From: Rhodothermales bacterium | GTDB taxonomy: Bacteria > Bacteroidota > Rhodothermia > Rhodothermales > JAHQVL01 | Direction of reading: 5' to 3' | Length of the DNA stretch: 64,000 nt | Assembly (NCBI GenBank): GCA_041391505.1 | Contig: JAWKNW010000004.1 | Location: 292,540-356,539, forward strand | Position numbers and translations under genes: made by a program | Shown here: positions 6,325-23,130 of the stretch, piece by piece | Layout of the letters: each line of letters begins with the position of its first letter | Numbering within the stretch: the stretch's first letter is position 1 | Notes under the pieces: generated by a model | Told to the model about the DNA's origin: nothing | The model's input: the letters and a program-made list of their open reading frames with translations, nothing else | Database searches by the model: none

Positions 6325-6359
6325 CCTCAGTCCCTTTTTCCAAGCAAACGATCTGCCCT

Positions 6360-7079: not shown

Positions 7080-7100
7080 CGTTCAGCAACCGGTAACGTT

Positions 7101-7937
7101 ATGGAATTCAACGGCCCCGAGTGGCACGCGCCGACCACGCTCGACGCCGCGCTGGCGATGCGCGCCGAGTTGCAGGATGAAGCTACCGTCGTCGCCGGCG
7201 GGACCTTCGTCGGCACGCTGATGAACATCGGGTTCATGGCGCCGGCGGCGCTGCTGAGCCTGCGCGGCGTGCCGGGGCTCGCGTACATCCGCGCGGACGG
7301 CGAGCTGCGCATCGGTCCGATGACCACGCACCGCGCCATCGAGCTGTCGCCCGAGATCCGCCGGCACTGGCCGGCCCTCGCGCAGGCGTTTTCGGTGGTG
7401 GCCAGCCCGCGCGTCCGCAACATGGCGACCGTCGGCGGCGTCCTCGCCGACGCCGACTATGCTTCCGATCCGCCGGCGATGTTTCTCGCGCTCGGCGCCC
7501 GCGCCGTGCTGCGGGGGCCCCGGGGCGAGCGGGAGGTGCCGGTGGAGGACTTCATCCTCGGCTACTACGAAACCGCCCTCGCGCCGGACGAGCTGTTGAC
7601 CGAGGTGCGTGTGCCCGCCGGCGGCGAGGCCGGCGTGTACCGCAAGTTCCGCACGCGTTCGAGCGAAGACCGCCCCTGCGTCTCCGTCGCCGCCGTCAAC
7701 CGGGGCGGCGAGCTTCGGGTGGCCGTCGGCGCCGTGGCGAGCCGTCCCCAGTATTTCCCCGAGGTCTGCGCGCTCGCCCGGGGCCGGCGTGTCGACGCCG
7801 ATCTGGCCCGCGAGATTGGCGAGGCCTACGCGCAGCGCATCGACCCCATTTCCGATTCCAGAGGCTCGTCGGAGTACCGACGCCGCGTCATCGCCGTCGA
7901 GGTGCGCCGCGCCCTGGAGGAGCTGTACCATGGCTGA
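7101..7937 (+). CDS. Molybdenum hydroxylase FAD-binding (medium, CoxM-like) subunit
   Basis: 278 aa. Pattern ...VVAGGTFVGTLMN...RNMATVGG...SEYRRRV is typical of xanthine dehydrogenase family FAD-binding subunits. Confidence 0.85.
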   Translation: MEFNGPEWHAPTTLDAALAMRAELQDEATVVAGGTFVGTLMNIGFMAPAALLSLRGVPGLAYIRADGELRIGPMTTHRAIELSPEIRRHWPALAQAFSVVASPRVRNMATVGGVLADADYASDPPAMFLALGARAVLRGPRGEREVPVEDFILGYYETALAPDELLTEVRVPAGGEAGVYRKFRTRSSEDRPCVSVAAVNRGGELRVAVGAVASRPQYFPEVCALARGRRVDADLAREIGEAYAQRIDPISDSRGSSEYRRRVIAVEVRRALEELYHG

Positions 7938-10050
7938 TCCCCGTTCCGCCGGCGCGCTCCGGTATGCGCAGGACCTCGAGATGGAGGGCATGCTTCACGC
8001 ACGCGTGCTCCGCTCGCCCTACGCGCACGCCCGGATCGTGCGCATCGATACCTCGTCCGTGCCCGACTCGGTCGTGGTGCTCACGCGCGACGACATCCGC
8101 GATCTGAACCGCTACGGGTGCCAGATCCAGGACGAAACCGTCGTGGCCGTCGACGAGGCGCTGTTCGCCGGCGCCCCGGTGGTGGCCGTCGCCGCCGCCA
8201 CGCGGCGCGAGGCCGACGAGGCGCTGCAGTACATCGACGTCGACTACGACGAGCTGCCGGCGGTGTTCAACGAGATGGACGCCATCGCGCCCGGCGCGCC
8301 GCTCGTCCATCCCCGCCATTACATCTCCGAGAACGACGCCGCCTACTTCGGGATGCGGCCGATCGACGGCACCAACATCTGCCACCGGTTCCGCATCCGG
8401 CACGGCGACATCGACGCCGGCTTCGCCGGCAGCGACGTCATCGTCGAAGAAGTGTTCACGACCGACAGCGCGGCGCACGTGCCCATGGAGCCGCACGCCT
8501 CGCTGGCCCGCTGGCACGACGGCCGGCTCGAGGTCTGGACCGGCAACCAGACGCCGTTCAACCTGCGGATGGACCTGGCCGGCATCTTCGGCCTCAAGCC
8601 CGAGCAGGTCCGCATCGTCGTCCCGCCCCTCGGCGGGTCTTTCGGCGCGAAGACGTTCGTGCGGACGGAGGCCATCGCGGCGGCGCTGGCGCGCAAGGCC
8701 GGCCGGCCGGTCAAGATCGTCCTGGAGCGCGCCGAAGAGTGGCAGACCATGAACCGCCACCCCGCCACGCTCTGGATGAAGATCGGCGCGAAGCGCGACG
8801 GCACGCTCGTGGCGAAACACGTCATGTGCTGGGCGAACACCGGCGCGCACGCGGATAGCGGCCCGGGCGTCGCCCAGAAGATGGGCTATGCCTCGCCGGG
8901 GCCGTACCGCATCCCGAACGTGTGGGTCGATTCCCACTGCGTGTACACCAACACCCCTCCCAACGGCGCCTACCGTGGCTACGGGCAGATGCAGTGCATC
9001 TGGGCGTCGGAGCGGCTGATGGACATGCTGGCGCACAAGCTCGGGATGGACCCCCTCGAGCTGCGCCTCAAGAACATCCTCCGCGAGGGCGACACGTATT
9101 GCACCGGCGAGACGATGCACGATGTCGCCTTCGAGGAGTGCCTGCGCCGGAGCGCGGAGGCGATAGGCTGGGATTCTTCCGATGATCACCGCGGCAAGGG
9201 GCTCTGCGTCCTGATGAAAGGGATGCAGACCCCCAGCCGCGCGTCGATTGGCATCGAAAAAGAGGACGACGGGACGTACACCATCCGCTGCGCCACCATC
9301 GAGATGGGCCAGGGCGCCCGGCCGGCGATCCGGCAGATGGCGGCGGAGCTCCTCGGCGTGCCCATGGACCGGGTGACGTTTCCGGACCCCGACACCGACA
9401 TCGTGCCGTACGATACACGCACCACGTCGAGCCGCTCGACCCACGTGATGAGCCGCGCGCTGGTCGAGGCCGTGCGGGCGCTGGAGCTGGACGGCCGAAA
9501 GGGCGTCGGCGAGGTGACGGACAAGGGGGGGCTGAACGTGGATACCGGGCAGGGGATCGCCTCGTCGCACTGGCACCAGGGCGCCGCCGGCGCCGTCGTC
9601 GACGTGGATCGCGAGACGGGCAAGCTGCACGTGCGCCACATTCACGCCTCCATCTATGCCGGCAAGGTGGTGAGTCGGCCGGCGGCCGAACTGCAGAACG
9701 AAGGCTCCATGATCATGGGGCTGGGCACGGCGCTGTTCGAGGCCATCCAGTTCGACGGCGGGCAGGTGACCAACGCCAACCTGTCGGATTACAATGTTCC
9801 GAGTTTCCACGACCTGCCGCGGATCACGCACGACCTCGTCGAGCGCGAGGGCGCGCAGGTGTACGGCCTCGGCGAGACGGCGCTGCCGCCCGTGCCGGCG
9901 GCCATCGGCAACGCGCTGGCGTCGCAGGGCATCCACCAGACGGCGCTGCCCATGACGGCAGAGCGCGTCATCCACGCCCTCGACGGCGGGGACGGCCCCG
10001 CGCGGCTGGCGGCCGTCCGGAAACTCATCGAGACGCACCCGCGATCGTAA
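7930..10050 (+). CDS. Molybdopterin-binding large subunit of a xanthine dehydrogenase/aldehyde oxidase-family hydroxylase
   Basis: In-frame ATG at 7930 overlaps the upstream stop (ATGGCTGA, 7930-7937). 706 aa. RVLRSPYAHARI, GGSFG, GAYRGYG and GLGETALPPV motifs. Confidence 0.9.
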   Translation: MADPRSAGALRYAQDLEMEGMLHARVLRSPYAHARIVRIDTSSVPDSVVVLTRDDIRDLNRYGCQIQDETVVAVDEALFAGAPVVAVAAATRREADEALQYIDVDYDELPAVFNEMDAIAPGAPLVHPRHYISENDAAYFGMRPIDGTNICHRFRIRHGDIDAGFAGSDVIVEEVFTTDSAAHVPMEPHASLARWHDGRLEVWTGNQTPFNLRMDLAGIFGLKPEQVRIVVPPLGGSFGAKTFVRTEAIAAALARKAGRPVKIVLERAEEWQTMNRHPATLWMKIGAKRDGTLVAKHVMCWANTGAHADSGPGVAQKMGYASPGPYRIPNVWVDSHCVYTNTPPNGAYRGYGQMQCIWASERLMDMLAHKLGMDPLELRLKNILREGDTYCTGETMHDVAFEECLRRSAEAIGWDSSDDHRGKGLCVLMKGMQTPSRASIGIEKEDDGTYTIRCATIEMGQGARPAIRQMAAELLGVPMDRVTFPDPDTDIVPYDTRTTSSRSTHVMSRALVEAVRALELDGRKGVGEVTDKGGLNVDTGQGIASSHWHQGAAGAVVDVDRETGKLHVRHIHASIYAGKVVSRPAAELQNEGSMIMGLGTALFEAIQFDGGQVTNANLSDYNVPSFHDLPRITHDLVEREGAQVYGLGETALPPVPAAIGNALASQGIHQTALPMTAERVIHALDGGDGPARLAAVRKLIETHPRS

Positions 10051-10055
10051 CCATC

Positions 10056-10502
10056 ATGAACGTACGATTTACCCTCAACGGCACCCCGACCGAGGTGGAC
10101 GTCCGCGCCGACGAGATGCTGCTCGACGTCCTGCGCGACCGGCTGGGCTTTCCGAGCGTCCGCGAGACGTGCAGCATCGGCGTGTGCGGCTCCTGCACCG
10201 TCCTGATCGACGGCGAGCCGGTGTCCAGCTGCATCTACCTGACGCCGATGGCCGAAGGCCGGGCGATCACGACGATCGAAGGGCTGGGCGGCGATCACCC
10301 CGTCCAGCGCGCGTTCGAGGAGGCGCACGCGTTCCAGTGCGGCTACTGCACGCCGGCGATGATTCTGACCACCAAGCGGCTCCTGGAGGAAACCCCGCAT
10401 CCGACGGACGATGAGATCGACCTCGCGCTGAGCGGCAATCTCTGCCGGTGCGGCTGCTACGTCAAGATCCGCGATGCCGTCAAGCTGGCGGCGGGGAGAT
10501 GA
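10056..10502 (+). CDS. [2Fe-2S]-binding small subunit (CoxS-like) of the molybdenum hydroxylase
   Basis: 148 aa. Two Cys clusters: CSIGVCGSCTV and QCGYCTPAM...CRCGCY. Confidence 0.9.
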   Translation: MNVRFTLNGTPTEVDVRADEMLLDVLRDRLGFPSVRETCSIGVCGSCTVLIDGEPVSSCIYLTPMAEGRAITTIEGLGGDHPVQRAFEEAHAFQCGYCTPAMILTTKRLLEETPHPTDDEIDLALSGNLCRCGCYVKIRDAVKLAAGR

Positions 10503-10583
10503 ACGGTCGTGAGCGCCCTCTGGGCGCGGTCAGGGGTCATCGGTCACTGATCGTCCTGAAACTTCGATGTCTTCTCGACCGAA

Positions 10584-10676
10584 CCCTCGATCACATCGAG
10601 GGGAAGCGGAGAGACCTCCCGAAGAGTGGCGCTACGTTGATTGTGGAATACCGCCATCCTTTGGGAGGTCCCTCTG
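10584..10676. repeat. Structured intergenic element (two adjacent hairpins; GACCTCCC/GGGAGGTC core)
   Basis: CCCTCGAT-CAC-ATCGAGGG (10584-10602). GACCTCCCGAAG (10613-10624) pairs with CTTTGGGAGGTC (10659-10670) with one G-U. The same GACCTCCCGA / TCGGGAGGTCC core occurs in the 32586-32751 element. Confidence 0.6.
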
Positions 10677-10810
10677 CTCCGGTCCTGCTTTGCAGGCCCT
10701 GCGGTCGGGACGACAATCATTTTTTTACTGAGAACCTGCGATCCTTCGACGCCGGCGGCAACCGCCGCCGCCGCTCAGGACAGGCCTCCAACCTGTAACC
10801 TGCAACCCCT

Positions 10811-11104
10811 ATGTCCTACGTCGTCGTAGCGACCTGGCGCGCCAAGCCAGGGAAAGAAGCGTTTATCGAAAACATCGTCCGGACGATGGCTCGGCTGTCC
10901 ACCACGGAGGAGCCGGAGACCATCCAGTTCACGGCGCAGCGGTCGGTGGACGATCCCGCCTCGTTCCTGCTGTACGAGGTCTATACCTCCGAGGCCGGCT
11001 TCGAGGCGCACAAGGAAACCGAGCATTTCAAGGAGTACGTACTCGGGCAGGCGCTGCCGAATCTGGCGCACCGCGAACGCGCGATCTACGAAACGCTCGA
11101 TTGA
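10811..11104 (+). CDS. Antibiotic-biosynthesis-monooxygenase (ABM) domain protein, YgiN-like
   Basis: 97 aa; ...FLLYEVYTSEAGFEAHKETEHFKEY... is the typical ABM/quinol-monooxygenase pattern. Confidence 0.75.
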   Translation: MSYVVVATWRAKPGKEAFIENIVRTMARLSTTEEPETIQFTAQRSVDDPASFLLYEVYTSEAGFEAHKETEHFKEYVLGQALPNLAHRERAIYETLD

Positions 11105-11109
11105 TCGGG

Positions 11110-11817
11110 ATGGCACAGGGAGACAGCTTGCCGGTGGCGGTGCATCTGGTTCGTCACGGCCGGGTCGCTTCGCATCGGGGCGACATACCGATCACGGAGG
11201 AGGGGCGGGTCGAGATCGCGGCGGCGGGCCGCGGGCTGGCCGTCGGGCTGCGGCGCGACGAGGACGTTCATTTTTTGACCACCCCGACCCGGCGGACGAA
11301 AGAGACGGCCGACGTGCTCCGCGCGTCGATGCGCGCGGCGCACGGAGAAGGCGCCGGCTTCCTCGAGCCCCGCGAGGAGTGGGCGATCCGGAACCCCGAC
11401 CTGTTTCTGGCGGGCCGGCGTGTGGAAATGGTCAGCACCCCCGAAGCGATGGCCGGCCAGATCCCCGAGACCGGCATCGACGCCGCCGGCGTGGACGCCG
11501 TCGCGTTTTTCCATGCGTTTTTTCGGAGTCCGGACCGCATCGGCTACTGGATGGCCCAGCCCGATCCGCCCGGCGAGGATGTGACGGCGGTGGCGCGGCG
11601 CATCGTTGCATTCTGTATGAGCCTGTTGTACGTTCCAACGCACCGCCGGAGGCGCTTCGTGTGCGTGACGCATTCGCCGGTGCTCCGTGCCGTACTGCAG
11701 CACTATACCCACCAGGATCCTGGGGAGCCGGAATACGGCGAGTCGATCGACCTCCACCTGGATCCCCGTGAGAGCACGGTCACCTTCCGTGGCCTCACAA
11801 TGCCCCTTCGGGTTTGA
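11110..11817 (+). CDS. Histidine phosphatase (phosphoglycerate-mutase-like) family protein
   Basis: RHG catalytic motif in VHLVRHGRV near the N-terminus and a later THSPVLRA (His) motif. ATG at 11110 preferred over the TTG at 11101. Confidence 0.7.
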   Translation: MAQGDSLPVAVHLVRHGRVASHRGDIPITEEGRVEIAAAGRGLAVGLRRDEDVHFLTTPTRRTKETADVLRASMRAAHGEGAGFLEPREEWAIRNPDLFLAGRRVEMVSTPEAMAGQIPETGIDAAGVDAVAFFHAFFRSPDRIGYWMAQPDPPGEDVTAVARRIVAFCMSLLYVPTHRRRRFVCVTHSPVLRAVLQHYTHQDPGEPEYGESIDLHLDPRESTVTFRGLTMPLRV

Positions 11818-11892
11818 AAAAAGCCCGGTTTCACGTCACGGATGGTAGCGCTTCGCGTGTGCCGTCCTTCACCAAAGTCGGAAGAGCGAATT

Positions 11893-13137
11893 ATGCATTC
11901 GAACCTGACCAGTAGGCTCAGCCTGTTATCATTCCTCCAGTTTTTTGTATGGGGGGCCTGGTATACGAGCATCGCGGTGTACATGTCGACCGTGGGGATG
12001 GGGACGGTGACGTTCTGGGCGTTCACGGCGCAGCCCATCGGCGCGTTGATTTCGCCCTTTTTCCTGGGTCTGATTGCAGACCGGTATTTCAGCACGGAAA
12101 AGGTGCTGGGCGTGATGCACCTGCTGAGCGGCATGTTCCTGCTGCTGGCGCCTCAGTTTGAAGGGCAGCCGGTGCTGTTCATCGCGATGATCATGTTGCA
12201 CCAGCTGGCCTACACGCCGACGCTCGGCCTGTCGAACTCGCTGGCGTTCCATCACATCCCGGATCCCGAGAAGGACTTCCCAAAGATCCGCGCCTGGGGC
12301 ACGTTCAGCTGGATATTCGCCGGCCTGATCATGTTTCCGTTTATCCTGAAGCCGCTGGCCGGCGGCGGCGTCCCCGAACAGACGCCGATGCCGCTCTACG
12401 CGGCCGGCATCGCGGGCATCCTGCTGGGGCTGTACTCCTTCACGCTGCCGCATACGCCGCCTCCGGCCGCCGGCCAGAAGGTGTCGGTCCGCAGCCTGCT
12501 CGGCATCGACGCGTTCCAGCAACTGAAGAGCCCGTCGTTCATCGCGTTCATCGTCAGCTCGATGCTCATCTGCATCCCGCTCGCCGCCTATTACAACTTC
12601 ACGCAGCTGTTCCTCGGCGCGACCGGCGTGGAAAACATCGCGGCCACGCAAACGCTCGGCCAGGTGTCGGAGATGGTCTTCATGTTGTTGATGCCGCTCT
12701 TCTTCCGCCGCCTCGGCGTGAAGTGGATGCTCCTCGTGGGGATGCTGGCGTGGGCCGTGCGGTATGCGCTGTTCGCCCTGGCGGCGCCGGCCTCGGTGTT
12801 CTGGATGATCGCCGCCGGCATCATCCTCCACGGGATCTGCTACGACTTCTTCTTCGTCACCGGCCAGATCTACATCGACAAGCTGGCGAACCCGTCGATC
12901 CGGTCCCAGGCGCAGGGCATGCTCGTCTTCGCCACGTACGGCATCGGCATGCTGATCGGCGCGCAGCTCTCCGGCCGGCTGTTCAACTCGTTCATGGGCG
13001 ACGGGACGACGCTCTCGATGGCGAGCTGGACGCAGTTCTGGACGATCATGGGGGCGATGGCCATCGTGGTCGCGGTCTTCTTCGGTTTCGTGTTCCGCGA
13101 ACCGAAAAAGGACGCGGTGCCGGCTTCCGGTTCGTGA
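11893..13137 (+). CDS. NupG/XapB-like MFS transporter (nucleoside:H+ symporter family)
   Basis: Start at MHSNLTSRLSLLSFLQFFVWGAWYTS..., which closely parallels the NupG N-terminus (LSFLQF..WG.W). About 12 hydrophobic segments. Confidence 0.8.
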   Translation: MHSNLTSRLSLLSFLQFFVWGAWYTSIAVYMSTVGMGTVTFWAFTAQPIGALISPFFLGLIADRYFSTEKVLGVMHLLSGMFLLLAPQFEGQPVLFIAMIMLHQLAYTPTLGLSNSLAFHHIPDPEKDFPKIRAWGTFSWIFAGLIMFPFILKPLAGGGVPEQTPMPLYAAGIAGILLGLYSFTLPHTPPPAAGQKVSVRSLLGIDAFQQLKSPSFIAFIVSSMLICIPLAAYYNFTQLFLGATGVENIAATQTLGQVSEMVFMLLMPLFFRRLGVKWMLLVGMLAWAVRYALFALAAPASVFWMIAAGIILHGICYDFFFVTGQIYIDKLANPSIRSQAQGMLVFATYGIGMLIGAQLSGRLFNSFMGDGTTLSMASWTQFWTIMGAMAIVVAVFFGFVFREPKKDAVPASGS

Positions 13138-13262: not shown

Positions 13263-14171
13263 ATGCCAGAACTGATCAATTTTCAACCGACACCCAGCGG
13301 GCCGCCGGTACGCGCGTTTCGGCTAGAGCCGCAGCATACGCAGCAATTCCTGACCCCGCACGCCCATCGTTTCTTCGAAGTCGTGTACTTCGAGGAGCCA
13401 GGCGGCGTGCACCGTCTCGGGGACGAGGTCTGGGAAAGCACCGCCGGCGATTTGCTCATCATTCCGCCGGGGCAGGTGCACGAGTGGGCGGAGGACGTGT
13501 TCGAGAAACAGTCCACCATCTGGATCCTGGAATTCACGGCGTCGGCGCTGGACCCGGACGGCGACGCCGGCGAGTCGCTGCTCGGCATCCTGCTGCATCC
13601 GCTGCTGGTGCCGTTTGCCTTCGGCTCGCAGGAGGGGCCGATGCGGCTCAACGTGCCCGCCTCCCAGCGTTCGGGGTGGGAGACCGCGCTGCGATCGCTC
13701 GAGGCCGAACGCCGCAAGCAGCCTCCCTACTGGCAGGAGGCGGTGAACGCGCTCTTCACGCTGCTGCTCGTCCAGGTCTGCCGGTTTGCCGCCATGGCGC
13801 ATCCGGCGCCGCAGGCGCAGACGCAGCCGCTGCTCAAACAGGTATTCGAGGTGATCGACGCCCGGTATGCGGAGTCGCTTTCGCTCGCCGATGTGGCGAA
13901 GGAAGTCTTCTATTCGCCGGCGCATCTCACCACGACGATCCGCCGGCTGACCGGGCGGACCGTCGGCAACTGGATCATCTGGCGGCGCATCGCGGAAGCC
14001 CGGCATCTGCTGGTGCATACCGACCTGACCATCGCCCAGATCGCCGAGCGCGTGGGGTACACCGACCCCTCGCACTTCGTCCGCCTCTTTCGCCGCGAAG
14101 CCGGCATCTCGCCGGGCGCGTGGCGGGATGCGCACCGGGCTCCCGGGGGAAAAAGAGCCGGCGCGGTGTAA
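13263..14171 (+). CDS. AraC-family transcriptional regulator (cupin-type sensor domain + HTH)
   Basis: 302 aa. N-terminal HAHRFFEVVYF...IPPGQVHEW (cupin-like). C-terminal LSLADVAKEVFYSPAHLTTTIRRLTG...IAERVGYTDPSHFVRLFRREAGISPGAWR (AraC HTH). Confidence 0.85.
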   Translation: MPELINFQPTPSGPPVRAFRLEPQHTQQFLTPHAHRFFEVVYFEEPGGVHRLGDEVWESTAGDLLIIPPGQVHEWAEDVFEKQSTIWILEFTASALDPDGDAGESLLGILLHPLLVPFAFGSQEGPMRLNVPASQRSGWETALRSLEAERRKQPPYWQEAVNALFTLLLVQVCRFAAMAHPAPQAQTQPLLKQVFEVIDARYAESLSLADVAKEVFYSPAHLTTTIRRLTGRTVGNWIIWRRIAEARHLLVHTDLTIAQIAERVGYTDPSHFVRLFRREAGISPGAWRDAHRAPGGKRAGAV

Positions 14172-14485: not shown

Positions 14486-16654
14486 ATGAGAGACACCCTG
14501 CGCTTGCCCCTTTACGTGGCACTGGCCGCCTCGCTGCTGGCCGGTTGCGCGCCGAAGCAGCAGGCATTGGATGAATCGTTTTACACCTGGAAGCGCTACG
14601 AGGGCCAGCCCGGCGCGACCCATTTCTCCGCGCTCGACCAGATCAACCGGTCGAATGTAAACCAGCTGCAAGAAGCCTGGCGCTACGAGGCGCCGGATAT
14701 CGCGGCCTTCAACCCGATCGTGATCGACTCGGTGATGTACGCGTTCGGGGACGGCGGCGCCATGGTGGCGCTCGATGCCGCGACGGGGGAGGAATTGTGG
14801 TCGTACCAGAGCCCGCTGCCCGGGGGACGCACCGAGCACGGCGTGGCCTACTGGGAGAGCGCGGACCGGTCGGAACGCCGGCTCCTCTTTTTCCGGGGCA
14901 GCTATTACCTCGTGGCCATCGATGCGCGCACCGGCCAGGCGATCCCCTCGTTTGGCGACAACGGCCAGGTCGACCTCCGCCAGGGGCTCGACATCGACCC
15001 GATGCGCGTGGTGCGCGCCACGGCGCCGGCGCCCGGCGTCATCTATGACGACCTCTACATCCTGGGCTCGGCTCCGGGCGAAGGCTACGCCGCCGGGCCG
15101 GGGCACATCCGCGCCTTCAACGTGCGGACGGGCAAGCAGGTCTGGATCTTCCATACCCTCCCCAAACCCGGCGAATTCGGCTACGAAACCTGGCCGCCCG
15201 GACGCTCCGACGCCGCCGGCGGCGCTAACGCCTGGGGCGGGTTGAGCGTCGATATCGAACGCGGGATGGTGTTCGTTCCGCTGGGATCCGCCAACTACGA
15301 CTTTTACGGGGTGGATCGGCACGGCCAGAACCTCTTCGCCAATTCGCTCGTCGCCCTCGACGCGCGCACCGGCGAGCGGAAGTGGCACTTCCAGACGGTC
15401 CATCACGACCTCTGGGACTACGACCTCACGGCGACGCCCGTCCTCCTGACCATCCAGCGCGATGGCAAGCCGCTCGACATCGTCGCCCAGGCCACCAAAA
15501 CGGGGTTTGTGTTTGCGTTCAACCGCGAGACGGGCGAGCCGCTCTGGCCGATCGAGGAGCGGCCCATGCCGGCGTCCGACATGCCCGGCGAGCAGGCCTG
15601 GCCCACGCAGCCCATCCCGACGAAGCCGGCGCCCTTTATCCCCCAGACCCTGTCGGTGGAAGATTTTAACCCGCACATGCTGGACAGCGACCGGGATTCC
15701 CTCGAGGCGCTCGTCCGGTCGATGGTCTACAAGGGGATGTTCACGCCGCCCGACACGCATCCCACGCTCCAGGCGCCCGGCAACCGGGGCGGGGCGAACT
15801 GGGGTTCGACGGCCGGCGATCCACGCGACGGGACGTTTTTCGTGCTCAGCTACAACATGCCTTCGGTGCTGAAGCTCGAACCCATCTTCGCCGGCGCCGT
15901 GGGCACCGGCGGCTCGTCGTTCGACCAGGGCCAGGCCTTTTATCAGGCGAACTGCCAGATCTGCCACGGCGCCAACCGGCAGGGCCAGCCTCGCGGCGGC
16001 ATTCCGTCGCTGGTCGGCGTCGTCGAGCGCCTGAGCCACGACGACATCCGGCAGCAGATCACGGTCGGCCGCGGCCTCATGCCGGGTTTCCCGCAGATCA
16101 CCCCCGCGCAGTACGACGCCCTGGTGGCGTATCTGGCCAACCCGGAGCTGGCGCTGACGACCGGCCAGCAGCAGGCGACCGACGGCGGATTGACCGGCCG
16201 GCCGGAAGGACCGCAGCGGTACCAGAGCGGCTGGAACCATATTCTCGACAGCCGGGGCGAGCCGGCCATCAAGCCGCCCTGGTTCCGTTTGACGGCGTAC
16301 GACATGGAGACGGGCGACATCGCGTGGCAGGTGCCGATCGGCGAGGTGGATCATCTGGTGGCGGAGGGCATCGAAAATACGGGCACCTCCACCTGGGTCC
16401 GCGGCGGCCCGTCCGTCACGGCTGGCGAACTGATCTTTGTCTCCGCCGGCGAGAAGCTGTGGGCGCACGATCGTGAAACAGGCGCCCTGCTCTGGTCCAC
16501 GCCGTTGCCGGGCATCGGCGAGGGCATCCCCACCATTTATGAGGCCGAGGGCCGCCAGTTCGTCGTCGTGGCGGTGTCGCGCGGCGGCCAGGGGTCCCCG
16601 CCGGCCGTCAGGCCGCGAACGCCCGCCTACATCGCCTTCGCACTTCCGGAATAG
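14486..16654 (+). CDS. Lipoprotein PQQ-dependent (Gcd-like) beta-propeller dehydrogenase with embedded cytochrome c domain (paralog 1)
   Basis: 722 aa. Lipobox LLAGC. Gcd-type motifs ALDAATGEELW, NAWGGLSVD, LFANSLVALDARTGERKWHFQTVHHDLWDYDL, AWPTQPIP. Heme c motif CQICH at 15953-15967 followed by GLMPGF. Propeller-type repeats resume after it (AYDMETGDIAWQ, HDRETGALLW). Confidence 0.85.
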   Translation: MRDTLRLPLYVALAASLLAGCAPKQQALDESFYTWKRYEGQPGATHFSALDQINRSNVNQLQEAWRYEAPDIAAFNPIVIDSVMYAFGDGGAMVALDAATGEELWSYQSPLPGGRTEHGVAYWESADRSERRLLFFRGSYYLVAIDARTGQAIPSFGDNGQVDLRQGLDIDPMRVVRATAPAPGVIYDDLYILGSAPGEGYAAGPGHIRAFNVRTGKQVWIFHTLPKPGEFGYETWPPGRSDAAGGANAWGGLSVDIERGMVFVPLGSANYDFYGVDRHGQNLFANSLVALDARTGERKWHFQTVHHDLWDYDLTATPVLLTIQRDGKPLDIVAQATKTGFVFAFNRETGEPLWPIEERPMPASDMPGEQAWPTQPIPTKPAPFIPQTLSVEDFNPHMLDSDRDSLEALVRSMVYKGMFTPPDTHPTLQAPGNRGGANWGSTAGDPRDGTFFVLSYNMPSVLKLEPIFAGAVGTGGSSFDQGQAFYQANCQICHGANRQGQPRGGIPSLVGVVERLSHDDIRQQITVGRGLMPGFPQITPAQYDALVAYLANPELALTTGQQQATDGGLTGRPEGPQRYQSGWNHILDSRGEPAIKPPWFRLTAYDMETGDIAWQVPIGEVDHLVAEGIENTGTSTWVRGGPSVTAGELIFVSAGEKLWAHDRETGALLWSTPLPGIGEGIPTIYEAEGRQFVVVAVSRGGQGSPPAVRPRTPAYIAFALPE

Positions 16655-16721: not shown

Positions 16722-18662
16722 ATGTCCACTACGTTCATGGTCCGGCTCGCTGGCGCCCTGTGTGTGCTCGCAGCCCTGCCGGCGTCGGCGCAGCAAAGCC
16801 CCGCGCCCGACTTTATCCCCGACTACATCTTTCACGACTCGCAGCTGAACGGCTGGCGTCCGATCGGCGGAGCGGAGTGGAAGGCGGAGTTCGGGGCCAT
16901 CACGGGCACGGCCGGCAGGAATGGCGGATGGCTCATGCTGGATGCGTCGTACCAGAACGCCGCGTTTTTCACCCGTTTCAAATGCAAAGGCGCCTGCGAC
17001 GCCGGCGTGCTCCTGCGCGCCGAAAAGACGCCGACCGGCATGAAAGGCGTTTTTGTGGCGATTGAAAAAGGAACGATCGCGCCCTACCGCGTCACCCTCG
17101 ATGCGAACGGGAAGATCGTTTCGAAGCAGTCCGCGCGCCGGCAGGGCGGCGGCGGGGGTGGAGGGCAACAGCCGCCGATGCCATCGAGCCCCGTGCTCGA
17201 CGCGGCCACCGCCGCGTTGACGGCCCCGGTACCCGTCCAGCCCGACGCCTGGAATACCCTCGAAGTCATCGTCGACGGCAACCTCATCTACAACCACCTC
17301 AACAACGTCCGCAACGCCATTGCCGGCGGCATCGCGCAGGAATTCCCCGATACGCCGGCGCCGGAGTTCGGGGGCGCCGTGATCATCCCGGTGACGCGCG
17401 TCCACGGGTATGGCCCGATCGCGCTGTATGTGGGCTCGGGGACGGTGGAGTTCGAGGATGTGTCGGTGAAGGATCTGCACGTCCTCAACGTCGAGCCGGA
17501 GAAGACCTCCAACCAGTTCCGGGCACAGCAGCTCAACGAATTCTATTTCGGATGGGGGGCGGATATCGCGGACGTCAACCAGGACGGCATCAACGACCTC
17601 ATCTCCGGACCGTTTTATTACCTCGGCCCCGAATTCACCGAGCGGCACGAGTACTACGAGGCCCGCGTATTCAACCCCGGGCTCGAGTACATCAACGACA
17701 TGCTTACGTTCGCGAACGACTGGAACGGCGACGGATGGGTCGATGCCCTCGTCACCGAACGCCGGCCGCTGGTGCTGTACGTCAACCCCAGGGGCGAGCG
17801 GCGCTTTTGGGACCGGATCGAGGCGCTGCCGGATGTCTGTAGCGAAACGGCCGTGCGCGCGGATGTGGACGCCGACGGGAAGCCGGAGATCGTCTATGTG
17901 GCGGATGACGGCCGCGTGGCCTACGGCGAGCCCGATCCGGCCAATCTCAACGGCGCGTGGAAGGTGCACAAGATTTCAGAACCCGTCGTCGCCGGCTGCA
18001 ACACGCACGGCGTGGGCACGGGCGACGTCAACGGCGACGGCCGGATCGATATCCTGCAGGCCCGGGGATGGTGGGAGCAGCCTGCCGCCGGCCCCGACAA
18101 AGGCATGTGGATCTACCACGACGATCAGTTTGGCCGCTACACCCGTTCGCCGCAGCACCCGGGCGGCGCCGAGATCTCGGTGTACGACTTCGACGGCGAC
18201 GGCCTGAACGATGTCGTGACCAGCCTCAGCGCGCACGGCTGGGGCCTGGCGTGGTACAAGCAGAAACGCGACCCGGCCGGCAAGATCTCGTTCGACGAGC
18301 ACCTGATCATGGGCGACTTCTCGACGAAAAACGCCGGCGGCGTCACCTTCTCCCAGGTCCATTCCGGCGCCACGCTGGCGGACATCAACGGGGACGGCAT
18401 CATGGATTTTGTGACCGGAAAACGGCACTGGTCGCACCTGGATGCCTATACCGATCCCGACCCCGATGGGGAGGGCGTCATTTACTGGTACCAGACCGTC
18501 CGAAGCCCGGGAGCCCCGGGAGGCGTCGAATTCGTGCCGCATCTGATCCATAACAAGTCGGGCGTCGGTTCCGAGGTCAAGGTGCTGGACATCGATGGCG
18601 ACGGTGTGCTCGACGTCGTGGCGTCGGGGACGCGCGGCACGTTCATCTTCTGGGGTAAGTAG
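16722..18662 (+). CDS. Secreted DUF1080 (3-keto-disaccharide-hydrolase-like) + FG-GAP beta-propeller fusion protein (paralog 1)
   Basis: Start at MSTTFMVRLAGALCVLAALPASAQQ (signal peptide). N-terminal lectin/glucanase-like pattern (GW...W...G.I.G...FKCKGACDAGVLLR...WNTLEVIVDGNLIYNHLN...GPIALYVG...FEDVSVKDL). Then about six DxNGDG/DxDGDG FG-GAP-type repeats. Confidence 0.8.
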   Translation: MSTTFMVRLAGALCVLAALPASAQQSPAPDFIPDYIFHDSQLNGWRPIGGAEWKAEFGAITGTAGRNGGWLMLDASYQNAAFFTRFKCKGACDAGVLLRAEKTPTGMKGVFVAIEKGTIAPYRVTLDANGKIVSKQSARRQGGGGGGGQQPPMPSSPVLDAATAALTAPVPVQPDAWNTLEVIVDGNLIYNHLNNVRNAIAGGIAQEFPDTPAPEFGGAVIIPVTRVHGYGPIALYVGSGTVEFEDVSVKDLHVLNVEPEKTSNQFRAQQLNEFYFGWGADIADVNQDGINDLISGPFYYLGPEFTERHEYYEARVFNPGLEYINDMLTFANDWNGDGWVDALVTERRPLVLYVNPRGERRFWDRIEALPDVCSETAVRADVDADGKPEIVYVADDGRVAYGEPDPANLNGAWKVHKISEPVVAGCNTHGVGTGDVNGDGRIDILQARGWWEQPAAGPDKGMWIYHDDQFGRYTRSPQHPGGAEISVYDFDGDGLNDVVTSLSAHGWGLAWYKQKRDPAGKISFDEHLIMGDFSTKNAGGVTFSQVHSGATLADINGDGIMDFVTGKRHWSHLDAYTDPDPDGEGVIYWYQTVRSPGAPGGVEFVPHLIHNKSGVGSEVKVLDIDGDGVLDVVASGTRGTFIFWGK

Positions 18663-18717
18663 CCGGCGCGGCGCGCGGTGTGATTATCCCGTATTCAACC
18701 AGTCACAGGCTTTTGCC

Positions 18718-20721
18718 ATGAAATCGATGTTCTTCCGTGGTTTTGTCGTTGCGCTGATCGCGCTCCTGTTCCCGCGGGGGGGCTGGGCGCAGGACAAGGA
18801 GAAAGAGGCGACGATTCCGATCTCGATGCTGTTGTCCCAACAGGCGGCCGAGCCGCCCTCGGCCTCCGCGGCGCTCGCCCCGACCCTCGATGCGACGTAT
18901 GTCCAGACGTTTATGCCGTCCCGGGTGTTCGACGCCACGAGCCTCAACGGCACCCGCCAGCAGAGCGGGCGGTGGCGCGTGCAGGACGGCGAATATATCG
19001 GCCTGGTCGGGCCCGGCGGCAGCGCGCTGCTCCTGCTGGATGGGTCGAGCCAGGATCTCGCCGTGGCGGCATCCTTTCGGTGCGGCCCCGGTTGCGAGCC
19101 GGGCATCGTGATCCATGCGCAAACCGAGGGCGATCGCACCAGCGCGGTGCTCTATTCGTTCGGCGAGGGGAAGGTGGGGGGACATCAGATCGTGCTCGAT
19201 CCGAGCGGAAAGCTCGTCGAGCGGTCGGGCATCGAGCCGAGTCCGAGTCCGTACCCCATGAGCATGCTCGACTTCCGGGCGGAGTATCCGGGCCTGGGCC
19301 TGTTGTACCCGGGCCAGCTCGGAGGCCGGCAGGGGATCGAGCCGCTCAAGCTCGACAATTCCTGGAACCGCGCCGAGATCCATTCGGTGGGCACGTCGCT
19401 GCGGGGCCTGCTCAACGGCGCCGGCACCATGGAAGCCGGCGTGACCGCCGCCGCCCGCACCGCCCACGGGCAGGTGGGCCTCTTCGTTTCCGGCCCTCCC
19501 GGCACCGAGATCCGGTTCCGCGGCGTCGGTGTCAAGCCGATGGACGTCAAGAACGCCCAGCCGGTCGAGGTGACGTCGCCGCGCTTCCGGAAGCAGCAGC
19601 TCGACGCGATGTTCTACAGCGAAGCCATCACCGCGGCCGACGTGAATCTGGACGGCAACATGGACGTCATCGCCGGGCCGAACATCTTCATGGGGCCCGA
19701 ATTCACGACGCGGCACGAACTGTTCGTCCCCAAAACCTATTCGCCCACCTCGTACCCCGATCCGCTCCTCGCCTCCGCCGGCGACTTCACCGGCGACGGG
19801 TATCCGGACATCCTGTACACCGGCGAGCCGGGACGTCCGGGTTTTCTCTATGTGAATCCCGGCAAGGGCGACGTGCACCGCTGGGAAAAATACATGGTGA
19901 TCCCGTCGGTGGACAACGAGGTCGCCTTCGCGGATGACATCGACGGCGACGGCCAGCTGGAGTATGTCTACACCGATGGCGGCTTCATCGGGTACGCCGA
20001 GCCGGGTCCGGACCCGACGAAGATGTGGACCTTCCACCCCGTCACCGAGAAGGGACCGTGGGGCGCGATGTATGCGCACGGACTGGGCACCGGCGACGTG
20101 GATGGCGACGGGCGCAAGGACATCATCCAGGCCTACGGGTGGTGGCAGCAGCCGGCGACGCCGAACGGGCAGCCGTGGACGTACCATCCCGAGACGTTTG
20201 GCCGCTGGGGATCCCAGCAGGGCGGCGGCGGCGGCGCCCGCGCCTACGCCTACGATGTCAACGGCGACGGGCTGAACGATATCGTGACCAGCCTCGAAGG
20301 CCATGGCTTCGGCCTGGCCTGGTTCGAGCAGAAACGCGACGCGGCCGGCACGATCTCGTTCACGCAACACATGATCATGGATGACTTCGCCCATCCGAAC
20401 AACGGCGTCGTCTTCGCCGCGCTCCATGCCCTCGCCGTGGCCGACATCGACGGCGACGGGCTGCAGGATATCGTCACCGGCAAACGCTGGTGGGCGCATT
20501 TCGGCGAAAACCCGACCGACCCGGATGCCTTCGGCGCACCCGTGGTCTACTGGTTCCGCCTCGTGCGCGAGAACGGCCAGGCCCGCTTCGTGCCCGAGCT
20601 GATCAACAACAACTCGGGCGTCGGGACCGACATGGTCACGGCCGACCTCAACAACGACGGGCTGCCGGACGTGCTGACCGCGACGCGCCGGGGAACGAAT
20701 GTCTTTATCAGCAAACGCTAG
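18718..20721 (+). CDS. Secreted DUF1080-like + FG-GAP beta-propeller fusion protein (divergent paralog 2)
   Basis: Start at MKSMFFRGFVVALIALLF... (signal peptide). N-terminal domain keeps FRCGPGCEPGIV and ...GQVGLFVSGPPGTEIRFRGVGVK. The C-terminal part has DVNLDGNMD, DIDGDGQLE, DVDGDGRKD, DVNGDGLND, DIDGDGLQD and DLNNDGLPD repeats. Confidence 0.8.
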   Translation: MKSMFFRGFVVALIALLFPRGGWAQDKEKEATIPISMLLSQQAAEPPSASAALAPTLDATYVQTFMPSRVFDATSLNGTRQQSGRWRVQDGEYIGLVGPGGSALLLLDGSSQDLAVAASFRCGPGCEPGIVIHAQTEGDRTSAVLYSFGEGKVGGHQIVLDPSGKLVERSGIEPSPSPYPMSMLDFRAEYPGLGLLYPGQLGGRQGIEPLKLDNSWNRAEIHSVGTSLRGLLNGAGTMEAGVTAAARTAHGQVGLFVSGPPGTEIRFRGVGVKPMDVKNAQPVEVTSPRFRKQQLDAMFYSEAITAADVNLDGNMDVIAGPNIFMGPEFTTRHELFVPKTYSPTSYPDPLLASAGDFTGDGYPDILYTGEPGRPGFLYVNPGKGDVHRWEKYMVIPSVDNEVAFADDIDGDGQLEYVYTDGGFIGYAEPGPDPTKMWTFHPVTEKGPWGAMYAHGLGTGDVDGDGRKDIIQAYGWWQQPATPNGQPWTYHPETFGRWGSQQGGGGGARAYAYDVNGDGLNDIVTSLEGHGFGLAWFEQKRDAAGTISFTQHMIMDDFAHPNNGVVFAALHALAVADIDGDGLQDIVTGKRWWAHFGENPTDPDAFGAPVVYWFRLVRENGQARFVPELINNNSGVGTDMVTADLNNDGLPDVLTATRRGTNVFISKR

Positions 20722-20898
20722 GTTCTATCTGGAAAAGCCGGCAGACCGCGTGTATCCCGACCCGAATTCAGGGTTCGACGCGGTGTTGAAGGTTCCCTGA
20801 ATGCCCCGGGGCCACCCGAGCGATTTTCAAGAAAGGCCTGATTCCGGGGGCGGCCCATGTCGGTTGCCGGCCCTCGTTTTATACCCCGCTCATCCTGT

Positions 20899-23082
20899 AT
20901 GATGTCCACGACCAAACTACCCCTGGCCGGACTGGCCGCGCTGGCGATGCTGGCCGCGGCCTGTTCGCCGTCTACCACCGAACTCGACCCGCGTTTTTAC
21001 GAGTGGCGTCGCTACGAGTCGGAGCCCGGCGCCACGCATTTCTCCGCGCTCGACCAGATCGATCGCACCAATGTCAACCGGCTGACCGTCGCCTGGACGT
21101 ACGAGACCCCCGGGGCGGCTTCGATCAACCCGATCGTCGTCGATTCGATGATGTACGTCTTCGGGGACTCGAACGCGGTGGAGGCCCTCGATGCCGCTAC
21201 CGGCCGGCGCATCTGGTCGCACCGAAGCCCGAATACCGTGACGCTGCTCGGCCTGCCGAGGGGCTACTTCGAGCATGGCATCACGTACTGGGAAAGCGAG
21301 GACCGCAGCGACCGCCGGCTGCTGATGTATGCCAACACGAACACGCTGACGGCCATCGACGCGCTGACCGGAGAGCTGATCGTTTCGTTTGGCGACAGCG
21401 GCATGGTCGACCTCCGGCAGGGGCTCGACATCGACCCGTTGCGCGTCCAGCGCGGATCGTCGCCGAGCCCGGGCGCCATCTTTGAAGACCTCATCATCCT
21501 CGGCTCGTCGCCCGGCGAAGGGTATGCCGCCGGCCCCGGGCACATCCGCGCGTTCAACGTCCGCACCGGGCGTCAGGAATGGATCTTCCATACGCTGCCC
21601 AAACCCGGCGAATTCGGGTACGAAACCTGGCCGGAAGGGCGGTCGGACGAGGGCGGGGGCGCCAACGCGTGGGGCGGCATCAGCGTGGATGTCGAACGCG
21701 GCATCGCCTACGTGCCGCTCGGCTCCGCGACGTACGACTTCTACGGCGTCGATCGCCACGGGCAAAACCTCTTCGCCAATTCGCTGGTGGCGCTCAACGC
21801 GCGGACCGGCGAGCGCCTCTGGCACTTCCAGACGGTGCATCACGACCTCTGGGACTACGACCTGACCGCCACGCCCGTCCTGTTGACGGTGCAGCGCGAC
21901 GGCCGGCCGCTGGACATCGTCGTCCAGGCCACCAAGACCGGGATGGTGTTCGCCTTCGATCGCGTGACGGGCGAGCCGCTCTGGCCGATCGAGGAGACGC
22001 CGGTGCCGGGATCGGACATGCCGGGAGAGCAGGCCTGGCCGACCCAGCCCATCCCCACGAAACCCGAACCGTTCATCCCCCTGACCCTGTCGGTCGAGGA
22101 CTTCAACCCGCACATGGACGCCCGCGACCGGGATTCGCTGGAGGCGTTCGTGCGCTCGATGGTCTACAAGGGCATGTACACGCCGCCCGACACCCGGCCG
22201 ACGCTGCAGGTGCCGGGAAATCGCGGGGGCGCCAATTTCGCCTCGACGTCCGGCGACCCGCGCGACGGCACCTTTTACGTGCTGAGCTACAACATGCCGT
22301 CGGTGCTGATGCTGGAGCCCATCACCGCCGGCGCCGTCGGCACGGGCGAGTCCATCTTCGACCAGGGGCAGGCCATCTACCAGGCGAACTGCCAGATCTG
22401 CCACCGCCCGAACCTGCAGGGGCAGCCCCTGAGCGGGATCCCGTCGCTGGTCGGCGTGACCGACCGCCTCAGCCACGACATCCTGAAGCAGCAGATCAAG
22501 GGCGGCCGCGGGCTGATGCCGGGCTTTCCGAATCTGAGCGACGGCGAATTCGATGCGCTCCAGTCCTTCCTCGCCAACCCCGACCTGGCGTTGACCGCCG
22601 GCGAGGCGCTGACGACGGGCCGGCCCGAGGGGCCCGTCCGCTACCAGAGCGGCTGGAACCACATCCTCGACAGCAAGGGGGTGCCGGTCATCAAGCCGCC
22701 GTGGTTCCGGATGACGGCCTACGACATGAACACCGGCGCCATCAAATGGCAGGCGCCGATCGGCGAGGTGCCGCACCTGGCGGAGAAAGGCATCACGAAC
22801 ACCGGCGCGGCCAACTGGCTGCGCGGCGGGCCGGCGATCACCGCCGGCGGGCTCATCTTCCAGATGGCCGGCGAGACCTTCTGGGCCTACGACAGCGCGA
22901 CCGGCGAGGTGCTCTGGCGCTCCGAGCTGCCGGGCATCGGCGAAGGGATCCCGACGGTCTACGAAGTCAACGGCCGGCAGTATGTCGTGGCCATCGCCAC
23001 GGCGGGCGGATTCGGCCAGCCGGAGCCCACACGCCCGCGCAAACCCGCCTACATCGTGTATTCGCTTCCGGAAACTGACTGA
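20899..23082 (+). CDS. Lipoprotein PQQ-dependent dehydrogenase with embedded cytochrome c domain (paralog 2)
   Basis: Start at MMSTTKLPLAGLAALAMLAAAC (lipobox). Collinear with paralog 1. CQICH at 22390-22404. Confidence 0.85.
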   Translation: MMSTTKLPLAGLAALAMLAAACSPSTTELDPRFYEWRRYESEPGATHFSALDQIDRTNVNRLTVAWTYETPGAASINPIVVDSMMYVFGDSNAVEALDAATGRRIWSHRSPNTVTLLGLPRGYFEHGITYWESEDRSDRRLLMYANTNTLTAIDALTGELIVSFGDSGMVDLRQGLDIDPLRVQRGSSPSPGAIFEDLIILGSSPGEGYAAGPGHIRAFNVRTGRQEWIFHTLPKPGEFGYETWPEGRSDEGGGANAWGGISVDVERGIAYVPLGSATYDFYGVDRHGQNLFANSLVALNARTGERLWHFQTVHHDLWDYDLTATPVLLTVQRDGRPLDIVVQATKTGMVFAFDRVTGEPLWPIEETPVPGSDMPGEQAWPTQPIPTKPEPFIPLTLSVEDFNPHMDARDRDSLEAFVRSMVYKGMYTPPDTRPTLQVPGNRGGANFASTSGDPRDGTFYVLSYNMPSVLMLEPITAGAVGTGESIFDQGQAIYQANCQICHRPNLQGQPLSGIPSLVGVTDRLSHDILKQQIKGGRGLMPGFPNLSDGEFDALQSFLANPDLALTAGEALTTGRPEGPVRYQSGWNHILDSKGVPVIKPPWFRMTAYDMNTGAIKWQAPIGEVPHLAEKGITNTGAANWLRGGPAITAGGLIFQMAGETFWAYDSATGEVLWRSELPGIGEGIPTVYEVNGRQYVVAIATAGGFGQPEPTRPRKPAYIVYSLPETD

Positions 23083-23130
23083 GTGGAACGTTTCGTGACA
23101 TCCATATCCTTTGCGGCACATTGCCGGCAC

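Follow-up and report, generated by a model that had tools for sequence, protein, structure and literature searches.

Cytochrome c domain inserted in blade 6 of a Gcd-like pyrroloquinoline quinone propeller in four paralogous, probable quinohaemoprotein dehydrogenases of a Rhodothermales bacterium

Quinohaemoproteins are textbook cases of intramolecular electron transfer and are wanted for mediator-free biosensors and biofuel cells. The natural fusions of pyrroloquinoline quinone (PQQ) enzymes with haem c that are described in the literature searched are only alcohol dehydrogenases (ADHs) with terminal cytochrome domains. The passages of PMC8348568 that cite Okuda and Sode 2004 present the PQQ glucose dehydrogenase as having obtained a cytochrome only by engineering, and a 2026 preprint on PQQ enzymes reports haem-binding domains in some six-bladed and some ADH-type eight-bladed proteins and mentions no internal insertion. 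A full-text literature search, with most subscription journals outside its coverage, yielded no description of a cytochrome c domain internal to a PQQ propeller. This arrangement is found in the translated open reading frames (ORFs) of a 64-kb stretch of DNA from a Rhodothermales bacterium (contig JAWKNW010000004.1, positions 292,540 to 356,539; the whole 64,000-nucleotide (nt) stretch is hereafter the window), in which four neighbouring paralogs, A to D, of 722-741 amino acids (aa) each have a single CxxCH motif inside the propeller. A sequence-only reading of the window had proposed that the cytochrome c domain is internal to a propeller similar to that of the glucose dehydrogenase Gcd and is not appended at the C-terminus; this placement is borne out by Pfam, by alignments with Gcd and ADHs and by AlphaFold2 models.

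All four paralogs display the Pfam domain order propeller-cytochrome-propeller, with PF01011 scores of 568-583 bits (gathering cut-off 26.7 bits), which place them in the PQQ propeller superfamily, and Cytochrome_CBB3 (PF13442) scores of 43.7-52.2 bits (gathering cut-off 27 bits), the score of 52.2 bits being that of paralog A at aa 479-550. Paralog A (14486-16654, plus strand; 722 aa) starts with a lipoprotein signal (LAGC, Cys21) that is followed by the PQQ propeller with its internal cytochrome c domain, as delineated from the ORF, Pfam and the AlphaFold2 model; it is 100% identical to a protein from a Rhodothermales metagenome-assembled genome (MAG) with the database name 'PQQ-binding-like beta-propeller repeat protein'. 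According to PF01011, the Gcd alignment and DSSP strands, the N-terminal propeller part (aa 35-466; 14588-15883, plus strand) covers the first five blades, the A and B strands of blade 6 and, at aa 460-466, the strand that leads out into an extra hairpin, and it matches positions 1-446 of the 595 in the PF01011 profile. Next come the inserted class I cytochrome c domain (aa 478-555; 15917-16150, plus strand), a flexible return linker rich in Gly, Pro, Gln and Thr (aa 556-578; 16151-16219, plus strand; predicted local distance difference test score (pLDDT) 48-61) and the C-terminal propeller part (aa 579-719; 16220-16642, plus strand), to which the Gcd and 1kb0 alignments, the Trp-docking motifs and AlphaFold2 assign the hairpin strand that leads back, the C and D strands of blade 6, the whole of blade 7 and the first three strands (A-C) of blade 8. 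Beyond the cytochrome, at about aa 600-710 (aa 601-688 in paralog A), there are further matches to propeller models. The span 15917-16150 is the one that the sequence-only reading gave for the cytochrome domain, and it agrees with both the PF13442 placement and the helical block of the model.

The sequence that follows the haem, on which the claim of an insertion hinges, is propeller according to the Gcd alignment, Foldseek and the AlphaFold2 models of both A and D. In BLASTP comparisons with Escherichia coli Gcd, paralog A aligns in two collinear segments (A 13-466 with Gcd 146-619 and A 561-722 with Gcd 626-793), with 94 residues of paralog A standing in place of a 6-residue Gcd stretch (619-626); over Gcd 146-793 as a whole the propeller is collinear, with 29-31% identity. 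Among solved structures, HMMER aligns A 576-702 to residues 431-544 of 1kb0, that is, to the last propeller blades ahead of the C-terminal cytochrome of 1kb0 itself, and 1yiq is matched likewise. The AlphaFold2 model of A, obtained from a 43-sequence alignment (pLDDT 85.6, predicted template modelling score (pTM) 0.85), has strands up to residue 466, five helices at 478-551, the linker at 556-578 and strands again at 579-719, with the entire post-haem region 579-719 all-beta and predicted at pLDDT 92-98. An independent model of D, the most divergent paralog, obtained from 59 sequences, has the same topology (pLDDT 87.5, pTM 0.85). In Foldseek, every solved eight-bladed PQQ dehydrogenase aligns with the whole model of A (735-783 columns, E 1e-25 to 1e-31), with template modelling scores on the target of 0.58-0.75 and a probability of 1.00 to 30 solved PQQ dehydrogenases. 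An assembly or fusion artefact is ruled out by the occurrence of the same domain order in four paralogs and thousands of homologs.

Alignment with Gcd and the quinohaemoprotein ADHs, combined with the AlphaFold2 model, also settles the question raised by the sequence-only reading of which blade is interrupted. Paralog A contains seven Trp-docking motifs (A-x-D/N-x-x-T-G-x-x-x-W), starting at aa 95, 144, 210, 290, 344, 604 and 660, which mark strands C and D of blades 1-7; blade 8 is made of strands 677-719 together with the N-terminal strand 62-68. In blade 6, strands C and D lie at 600-606 and 611-617, and strands A and B lie at 436-445 and 450-456 (sequence GGANWGSTAGDPRDGTFFVLSY), repeating the blade 4 pattern GGANAWGGLSVDIERGMVFVPL. 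Given the seven motifs and this repetition of the A/B pattern of blade 4, the insert falls after strand B and before strand C of blade 6. Between these two strands lies an additional hairpin (460-466 and 579-585), which Gcd and ADH also have, and the cytochrome domain, of about 75-90 residues, is at the tip of this hairpin; the nearly invariant P597-P598-W599, the Trp being equivalent to Gcd W669, lies at the return end of the insert. The B-C and D-A connections of an antiparallel blade of four strands are on one and the same face. With the strand order taken from the AlphaFold2 model and the residues mapped through the Gcd alignment, the active-site homologs W250, D311, K338 and E199 lie in D-A or B-C connections of blades 3-5. 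Because the insert is a B-C connection, it shares the face of the loops that carry the PQQ-site residues, and the haem domain is therefore predicted to emerge on the PQQ face. The haem domain probably covers the side of the propeller that bears the active site, in a way similar to the C-terminal domain of type II ADHs; the connectivity of the two types of enzymes would then differ, and their geometry would possibly be convergent. The placement of the haem over the PQQ face by topology suggests that a corollary of the sequence-only reading, namely a different electron-transfer geometry, may be wrong.

Sites encoding CxxCH were sought in the DNA of both strands of the window with the degenerate pattern TGYNNNNNNTGYCAY. 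Five matches in total do not represent an unusual count (2.7 are expected by chance), and four of these are at homologous positions in paralogs A-D; four homologous positions in four paralogs, together with domain matches above curated thresholds, exceed by far what chance would produce. The remaining match, at 35480, is a chance occurrence: the ORF at 34809-35612 has no in-frame Cys-x-x-Cys-His. The DNA search and the translations reproduce the motifs and coordinates given by the sequence-only reading, with CQICH in paralogs A (C490, C493 and H494; 15953-15967, plus strand), B (22390-22404) and C (24604-24618) and CQLCH in D (36414-36428, minus strand), and the downstream Met-containing motifs GLMPGF (in two paralogs), NQMPAW and GTMPAF likewise read as claimed. 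In paralog A, the conserved Met532-Pro533 (16079-16084, plus strand) is the likely sixth (distal) haem ligand motif, by analogy with class I cytochromes c. The combination of a PF13442/PF00034-type domain score, one CxxCH and a downstream Met is that of a class I cytochrome c with predicted haem attachment, and the model accommodates the insert of paralog A as helices 478-489, 491-494, 512-515, 518-527 and 540-551 (pLDDT about 85). In a sequence search of the Protein Data Bank (PDB), the solved sequences nearest to the insert are from QcrC, CcoP and c552, each a class I domain (E 1e-6 to 1e-5), whereas the cytochrome domain of the type II ADH 1kb0 is reached only at E = 0.31. Because the insert resembles QcrC, CcoP and c552 and not the ADH domain, the haem domain was acquired independently and not moved from an ADH-type C-terminus. 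A relocated or permuted type II ADH cytochrome domain is rejected, the ADH domain not being among the significant relatives of the insert.

The sequence-only reading had named a lack of conservation of CxxCH among orthologs as grounds for refutation; the motif is conserved. C490, C493, H494, M532 and P533 are invariant in 43 homologs that are 47-73% identical; the two Cys and the His of CxxCH and M532 are still invariant in 59 sequences reaching down to 36% identity, and P533 is nearly so. The same 43 homologs also have invariant W250, H306, H307, D308, D311, D313, K338 and N438, and the length of the insert region varies from 105 to 128 aa across homologs.

The other three paralogs, identified by ORF and Pfam, are 73% (B), 65% (C) and 53% (D) identical to A in the alignment of paralogs and homologs. 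Paralog B (20857-23082, plus strand) is a 741-aa ORF with a likely start at Met15 (nt 20899) and a cytochrome domain at 22360-22572; paralog C (23083-25284, plus strand) is a 733-aa ORF with a likely start at Met17 (nt 23131) and a cytochrome domain at 24571-24786; and paralog D (35733-37937, minus strand) is a 734-aa ORF with a likely start near nt 37898 and a cytochrome domain at 36249-36458. The N-termini of the window paralogs and of their relatives in Rhodothermales and Gemmatimonadetes contain lipoboxes (LAGC, AAAC, LASC and LAGC), and those of acidobacterial members contain ordinary signal peptides. Judging by these signals, whether the same enzyme is tethered to the membrane or soluble appears to differ between phyla. 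Covalent haem attachment requires periplasmic export, a requirement that the lipoboxes and signal peptides of the paralogs and their relatives fit.

The active site of the propeller is readily aligned with that of Gcd: W250 is equivalent to Gcd W404, D311 to D466, K338 to K493 and E199 to D354. In the mutagenesis literature on Gcd, W404 is the stacking Trp, D466 the catalytic Asp, and Lys493 a further functional residue. The homologs of these three residues, W250, D311 and K338, are invariant in the 43-59 homologs, and a DxD motif is common to Gcd and the window paralogs. The Asp of the 'WDYD' motif, two positions after the catalytic Asp (D311-Y312-D313 of A, nt 15416-15424, with equivalents in B, C and D), is invariant in 59 homologs; this position is occupied by Thr in the Ca-dependent ADH IIG and by Asp in E. 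coli Gcd too. In the lanthanide-dependent XoxF and PedH, the extra metal ligand has the same +2 spacing after the catalytic Asp. Among the curated families, TIGR03074 (glucose/quinate/shikimate dehydrogenases, Gcd) scores best, at 346-377 bits against a cut-off of 833, followed by TIGR03075 (methanol/ethanol dehydrogenases) at 193-222 bits against 480 and TIGR04528 ('acido-empty-quinoprotein group A') with a partial match of 195-215 bits against 650, so that by curated thresholds the paralogs fall outside all three. The five-helix membrane domain of Gcd (residues 1-145) is absent: the alignment starts at Gcd 146 and is preceded by only a signal peptide or lipobox segment of about 20-37 residues. 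Also absent is the vicinal Cys-Cys, the disulphide above PQQ that is a feature of methanol dehydrogenases (MDHs) and ADHs; in the homolog alignment, positions 116-118 are T/R, N/G/A and R/H. The lack of the membrane domain and of an equivalent of His775 argues against ubiquinone as the direct acceptor.

Proteins with this architecture form a large family. At least 8000 candidates were obtained in a large protein search, with both PF01011 and PF13442 in 120 of 120 among the matches listed. A HMMER search with aa 425-625, which cover the cytochrome with both flanks, reached 469 50%-identity clusters at an E-value no higher than 1e-10, and most of the top 150 span the whole query. Thousands of these sequences are in the databases already, under generic names and with annotation of both domains. 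In a scan of GTDB with one genome per species and the full-length alignment as query, there were at least 600 matches; the best 80, in a ranking biased to relatives of the Rhodothermales query, comprise 33 from Acidobacteriota, 40 from Bacteroidota, 2 from Rhodothermota, 4 from Proteobacteria and 1 from Nitrospirales, and the cultured genera among these best 80 of at least 600 include Dyadobacter, Spirosoma, Mucilaginibacter, Adhaeribacter, Pricia, Edaphobacter and Terriglobus. Among 94 homolog ORFs in 87 loci of other genomes, 91 have exactly one CxxCH, one has two, and two, both truncated fragments, have none; most of these genomes belong to Acidobacteriota and Bacteroidota. Some family members are considerably longer: P0073 and P0111 have about 980-995 aa, P0081 and P0089 1144-1151 aa, and P0153 and P0181 about 1255 aa. 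One of these, P0089 from Bryobacteraceae, contains an additional PMT_2 glycosyltransferase-39-like membrane domain, and a PMT_2/TPR gene is found near the dehydrogenase in two acidobacterial loci (L003 and L004).

In the window, the dehydrogenases are accompanied by three paralogous partner genes, which encode a secreted protein with an N-terminal DUF1080 domain ('3-keto-disaccharide hydrolase', PF06439) and C-terminal FG-GAP/VCBS repeats and which have no PDB relative detectable by sequence. Two of these genes follow paralog A (16722-18662 and 18595-20721, plus strand) and one follows the B-C tandem (25332-27221, plus strand); an AraC-family regulator (13263-14171, plus strand) is encoded directly upstream of A. 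Another Rhodothermales MAG (locus L007) has four paralogs, three partner genes, two of which are at 7943-9880 and 18762-20624, and an AraC regulator embedded in the cluster, and the same dehydrogenase-partner pairing is present in two large metagenome-assembled genomes (L002, partner at 10216-12084, and L008, partner at 5880-7739). Altogether, the DUF1080/FG-GAP pairing occurs in 15 of the 87 loci, including those of Acidobacteriaceae, Vicinamibacterales, Chitinophagaceae and one flavobacterium; in the neighbour-joining tree, A, B and C belong to an almost wholly partnered clade, of which D is the sister. Other carbohydrate-type neighbours in the window are two xylose-isomerase-like TIM barrels, a GMC oxidoreductase and a GH78-like gene, and acidobacterial members are found beside TonB-dependent receptors, CBM9 and discoidin domains, cytochrome c and an SGL-type lactonase. 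The DUF1080 protein BT2157 is a periplasmic 3-keto-disaccharide hydrolase that cleaves 3-keto-trehalose, and cytochrome c-dependent glycoside 3-dehydrogenases act upstream of 3-keto-glycoside hydrolases in other bacteria (PMC8121099). Owing to the carbohydrate-type neighbours and the BT2157-type DUF1080 partners, sugar or glycoside oxidation is the most likely substrate class.

Several other genes of the region are worth recording. The GMC-family flavin adenine dinucleotide (FAD) oxidoreductase (30926-32548, plus strand) is located between the groups of PQQ paralogs; the GMC family includes glycoside 3-oxidases, and this gene may represent a second, flavin-based route of periplasmic sugar oxidation in the region. 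Three genes at 7101-10502 (plus strand) form a molybdenum hydroxylase cluster of the xanthine/CO dehydrogenase family and encode the FAD-binding, the large molybdenum cofactor-binding and the 2Fe-2S subunits; upstream of the cluster are two xylose-isomerase-like TIM-barrel genes, a UPF0261 gene, a cyclase, a short-chain dehydrogenase/reductase (SDR) and an aldehyde dehydrogenase. Convergent with paralog D is a 267-aa ORF (34809-35612, plus strand) that has a signal peptide and no Pfam match and contains an internal tandem duplication of about 110 residues, in which the motif W-G-x-L-x-H-x-W-G-D-E-W-N…D-H-A-x-F-V-x-A-W appears twice. The 1217-aa ORF at 38036-41689 (plus strand), with GH78-like alpha-L-rhamnosidase domains, has a third-position GC content of 0.72 compared with about 0.86 in neighbouring genes, and it is overlapped in another frame by an ORF at 38214-39203 (plus strand) that has better coding statistics and no Pfam match; the anomaly could reflect a frameshift, a mis-joined gene start or foreign origin. 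Finally, two large TonB-dependent receptors with N-terminal carboxypeptidase-regulatory-like domains are encoded at 57054-59891 and 60278-63238 (plus strand), and receptors of this type also adjoin acidobacterial PQQ-cytochrome homologs (L003 and L005).

Taking together the observed domain order, insertion point, conservation of the haem and PQQ sites, export signals, wide distribution and carbohydrate-type neighbourhood, we consider it probable, at roughly 0.7, that the four paralogs are periplasmic, lipid-anchored, single-chain quinohaemoprotein dehydrogenases of sugars or glycosides, built on an eight-bladed propeller of the Gcd lineage with a cytochrome c domain in blade 6, in which electrons pass from PQQ to haem c and on to a cytochrome or oxidase. 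Under this scheme, both PQQ and haem would be bound, a hydroxyl of the sugar or glycoside would be oxidised at PQQ with Asp311 as the catalytic base, PQQH2 would transfer its electrons in single steps to the haem c of the inserted domain (Cys490, Cys493, His494 and Met532), and haem c would then reduce a cytochrome c, either soluble or membrane-bound, or a terminal oxidase, so that the built-in haem would stand in for the route to ubiquinone through the membrane domain of Gcd. Bacteroidota, Acidobacteriota and Rhodothermota use menaquinones. The potential of menaquinone (about -70 mV) is well under that of PQQ/PQQH2 (about +90 mV), and a quinone exit would thus be uphill, whereas a cytochrome exit would be a workable route; the taxonomic spread of the best 80 matches plausibly fits this rationale, with a few proteobacterial exceptions. 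PQQ might be supplied by scavenging.

A number of observations weigh against this interpretation. The TIGR03074 score is far under the cut-off, which weakens the substrate assignment drawn from Gcd; the putative metal ligand E199 is replaced by Ala or Gln in 10 of the 43 homologs, and Gcd D730 and H775 are not kept in paralogs A-C. The DUF1080 partner is found in just 15 of the 87 loci, and a few members occur in ubiquinone-using Proteobacteria (Sphingomonas, Steroidobacteraceae), so that the menaquinone rationale is not exclusive. The window was found to contain no genes for pqq biosynthesis, for a cytochrome c partner or for an oxidase, and the literature searched yielded no biochemical data for any family member.

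The alternative that survives best, unlikely as it is, keeps the architecture and assigns it to non-sugar substrates, such as alcohols, aldehydes, polyols or other periplasmic compounds, with the carbohydrate neighbourhood being coincidental. The best solved relatives by sequence are indeed alcohol dehydrogenases (1yiq and 1kb0), yet the glucose/quinate/shikimate family scores best among the curated ones (377 bits versus 208 for methanol/ethanol) and the vicinal Cys-Cys of the ADH/MDH type is missing; and although the window also encodes an SDR, an aldehyde dehydrogenase, a carboxylesterase and a beta-lactamase-fold protein, and 72 of the 87 loci are devoid of the DUF1080 partner, carbohydrate-related partner and neighbour genes recur in several phyla. 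Clearly less probable is a cofactor-less 'empty quinoprotein' propeller, as NCBIfam proposes for TIGR04528, in which the haem would be the sole redox centre and the protein would be a cytochrome with a binding propeller. The many members in Acidobacteriota, the lack of pqq genes within the window and the partial TIGR04528 match of 195-215 bits would be in line with this possibility, although that score is far under the cut-off of 650. The variability of E199 in some homologs points in the same direction, but this residue is kept in all four window paralogs, and the homologs of the stacking Trp, the catalytic Asp and Lys493, as well as the HHD motif, D313 and N438, are invariant across 43-59 sequences. 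Furthermore, according to PMC12124388, organisms that take up PQQ without synthesising it are common in Rhodothermia, Bacteroidota and Gemmatimonadetes. It is very improbable that the cytochrome, instead of being the exit for electrons from PQQ, admits electrons when the reaction runs backwards, mediates docking or regulation or acts as a haem sensor: the flexible return linker (pLDDT 48-61) would suit such a role, but the Cys, His and Met ligands do not vary among the homologs, electrons have no other way out once the quinone-reducing membrane domain is lost, and His/Met class I domains fused to dehydrogenases are electron exits in type II and III ADHs (PMC8348568). The notion that the propeller ends before the haem and that the remainder is a separate extra C-terminal domain, to which the end of the PF01011 match at profile position 446 of 595 before the cytochrome might lend some weight, can be dismissed almost outright, given that the approximately 160 post-haem residues can be aligned with Gcd 626-793 as well as with the final blades of 1kb0, contain two more Trp-docking motifs, match propeller models such as PQQ_2, are needed to complete eight blades and are all-beta at pLDDT 92-98, with pTM of 0.85 in both models.

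If the paralogs are indeed quinohaemoprotein sugar or glycoside dehydrogenases, one can propose, more tentatively, that the entire family (at least 600 GTDB matches and hundreds of 50%-identity clusters) is a large third natural class of quinohaemoproteins, in which a Gcd-type propeller has lost the membrane anchor and gained a cytochrome in blade 6. This class would be an adaptation of menaquinone-only phyla through which electrons from the periplasmic oxidation of sugars or glycosides enter the respiratory chain at its high-potential end, with one major branch working together with the DUF1080/FG-GAP partner in PQQ-based cleavage of keto-glycosides; we regard this as a possible scenario that falls short of probable. 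The family is large, ecologically prominent in soil and marine bacteria and useful for bioelectrochemistry: should the assignment hold, it would offer a new, probably rigid PQQ-haem arrangement and candidate direct-electron-transfer sugar dehydrogenases from the cultivable Dyadobacter, Spirosoma, Mucilaginibacter, Edaphobacter and Terriglobus. It would also explain how abundant soil and marine phyla that lack ubiquinone link periplasmic PQQ oxidation to respiration. The four paralogs and three partner copies of the window suggest a substantial, unexplored pathway of periplasmic carbohydrate oxidation.

Compared with the known systems, these proteins are of a known kind, the quinohaemoprotein PQQ dehydrogenases, and are new in the lineage of the scaffold, the independently acquired haem domain and the loop-insertion connectivity, not in principle. 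The type II quinohaemoprotein ADHs (ADH IIB, ADH IIG and QH-ADH; 1kv9, 1yiq and 1kb0) provide the best sequence and fold matches in the PDB; like the window proteins, they are periplasmic single chains with an eight-bladed PQQ propeller and one class I cytochrome c domain, which is presumably on the PQQ side in both. However, in type II ADHs the cytochrome is C-terminal and is connected by a linker to a complete propeller of the methanol/ethanol lineage, whereas in the window proteins about 140 propeller residues follow the cytochrome (aa 478-555 of the 722 in paralog A), and the propeller is of the Gcd lineage and has no vicinal disulphide; the two cytochrome domains are not specifically related (E = 0.31), and the type II ADHs are soluble, whereas the window proteins have lipoprotein signals. 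Gcd (membrane glucose dehydrogenase, mGDH; TIGR03074) is the closest curated family, with a collinear propeller and W404, D466, Lys493 and the DxD motif in common. In contrast to Gcd, the window proteins lack the five-helix membrane domain and His775, score below the family cut-off, contain about 90 extra residues, the cytochrome c, where Gcd has the 6-residue loop 619-626, and are expected to donate electrons to a cytochrome or oxidase and not to ubiquinone. The engineered fusions of PQQ glucose dehydrogenase (GDH) with cytochrome c for direct-electron-transfer biosensors share the design idea of a built-in haem c outlet for a PQQ sugar dehydrogenase, but those are artificial, with an ADH cytochrome C-terminal to an unrelated six-bladed soluble GDH, whereas the window proteins are natural loop insertions in an eight-bladed propeller. 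Finally, LacABC or ThuAB, together with hydrolases of the DUF1080 type (for example BT2157), combine cytochrome c-coupled periplasmic glycoside oxidation with a DUF1080 gene beside the dehydrogenase, a likeness that would extend to the window enzymes, although those dehydrogenases are unrelated to PQQ propellers and the partner in the window carries an additional FG-GAP propeller.

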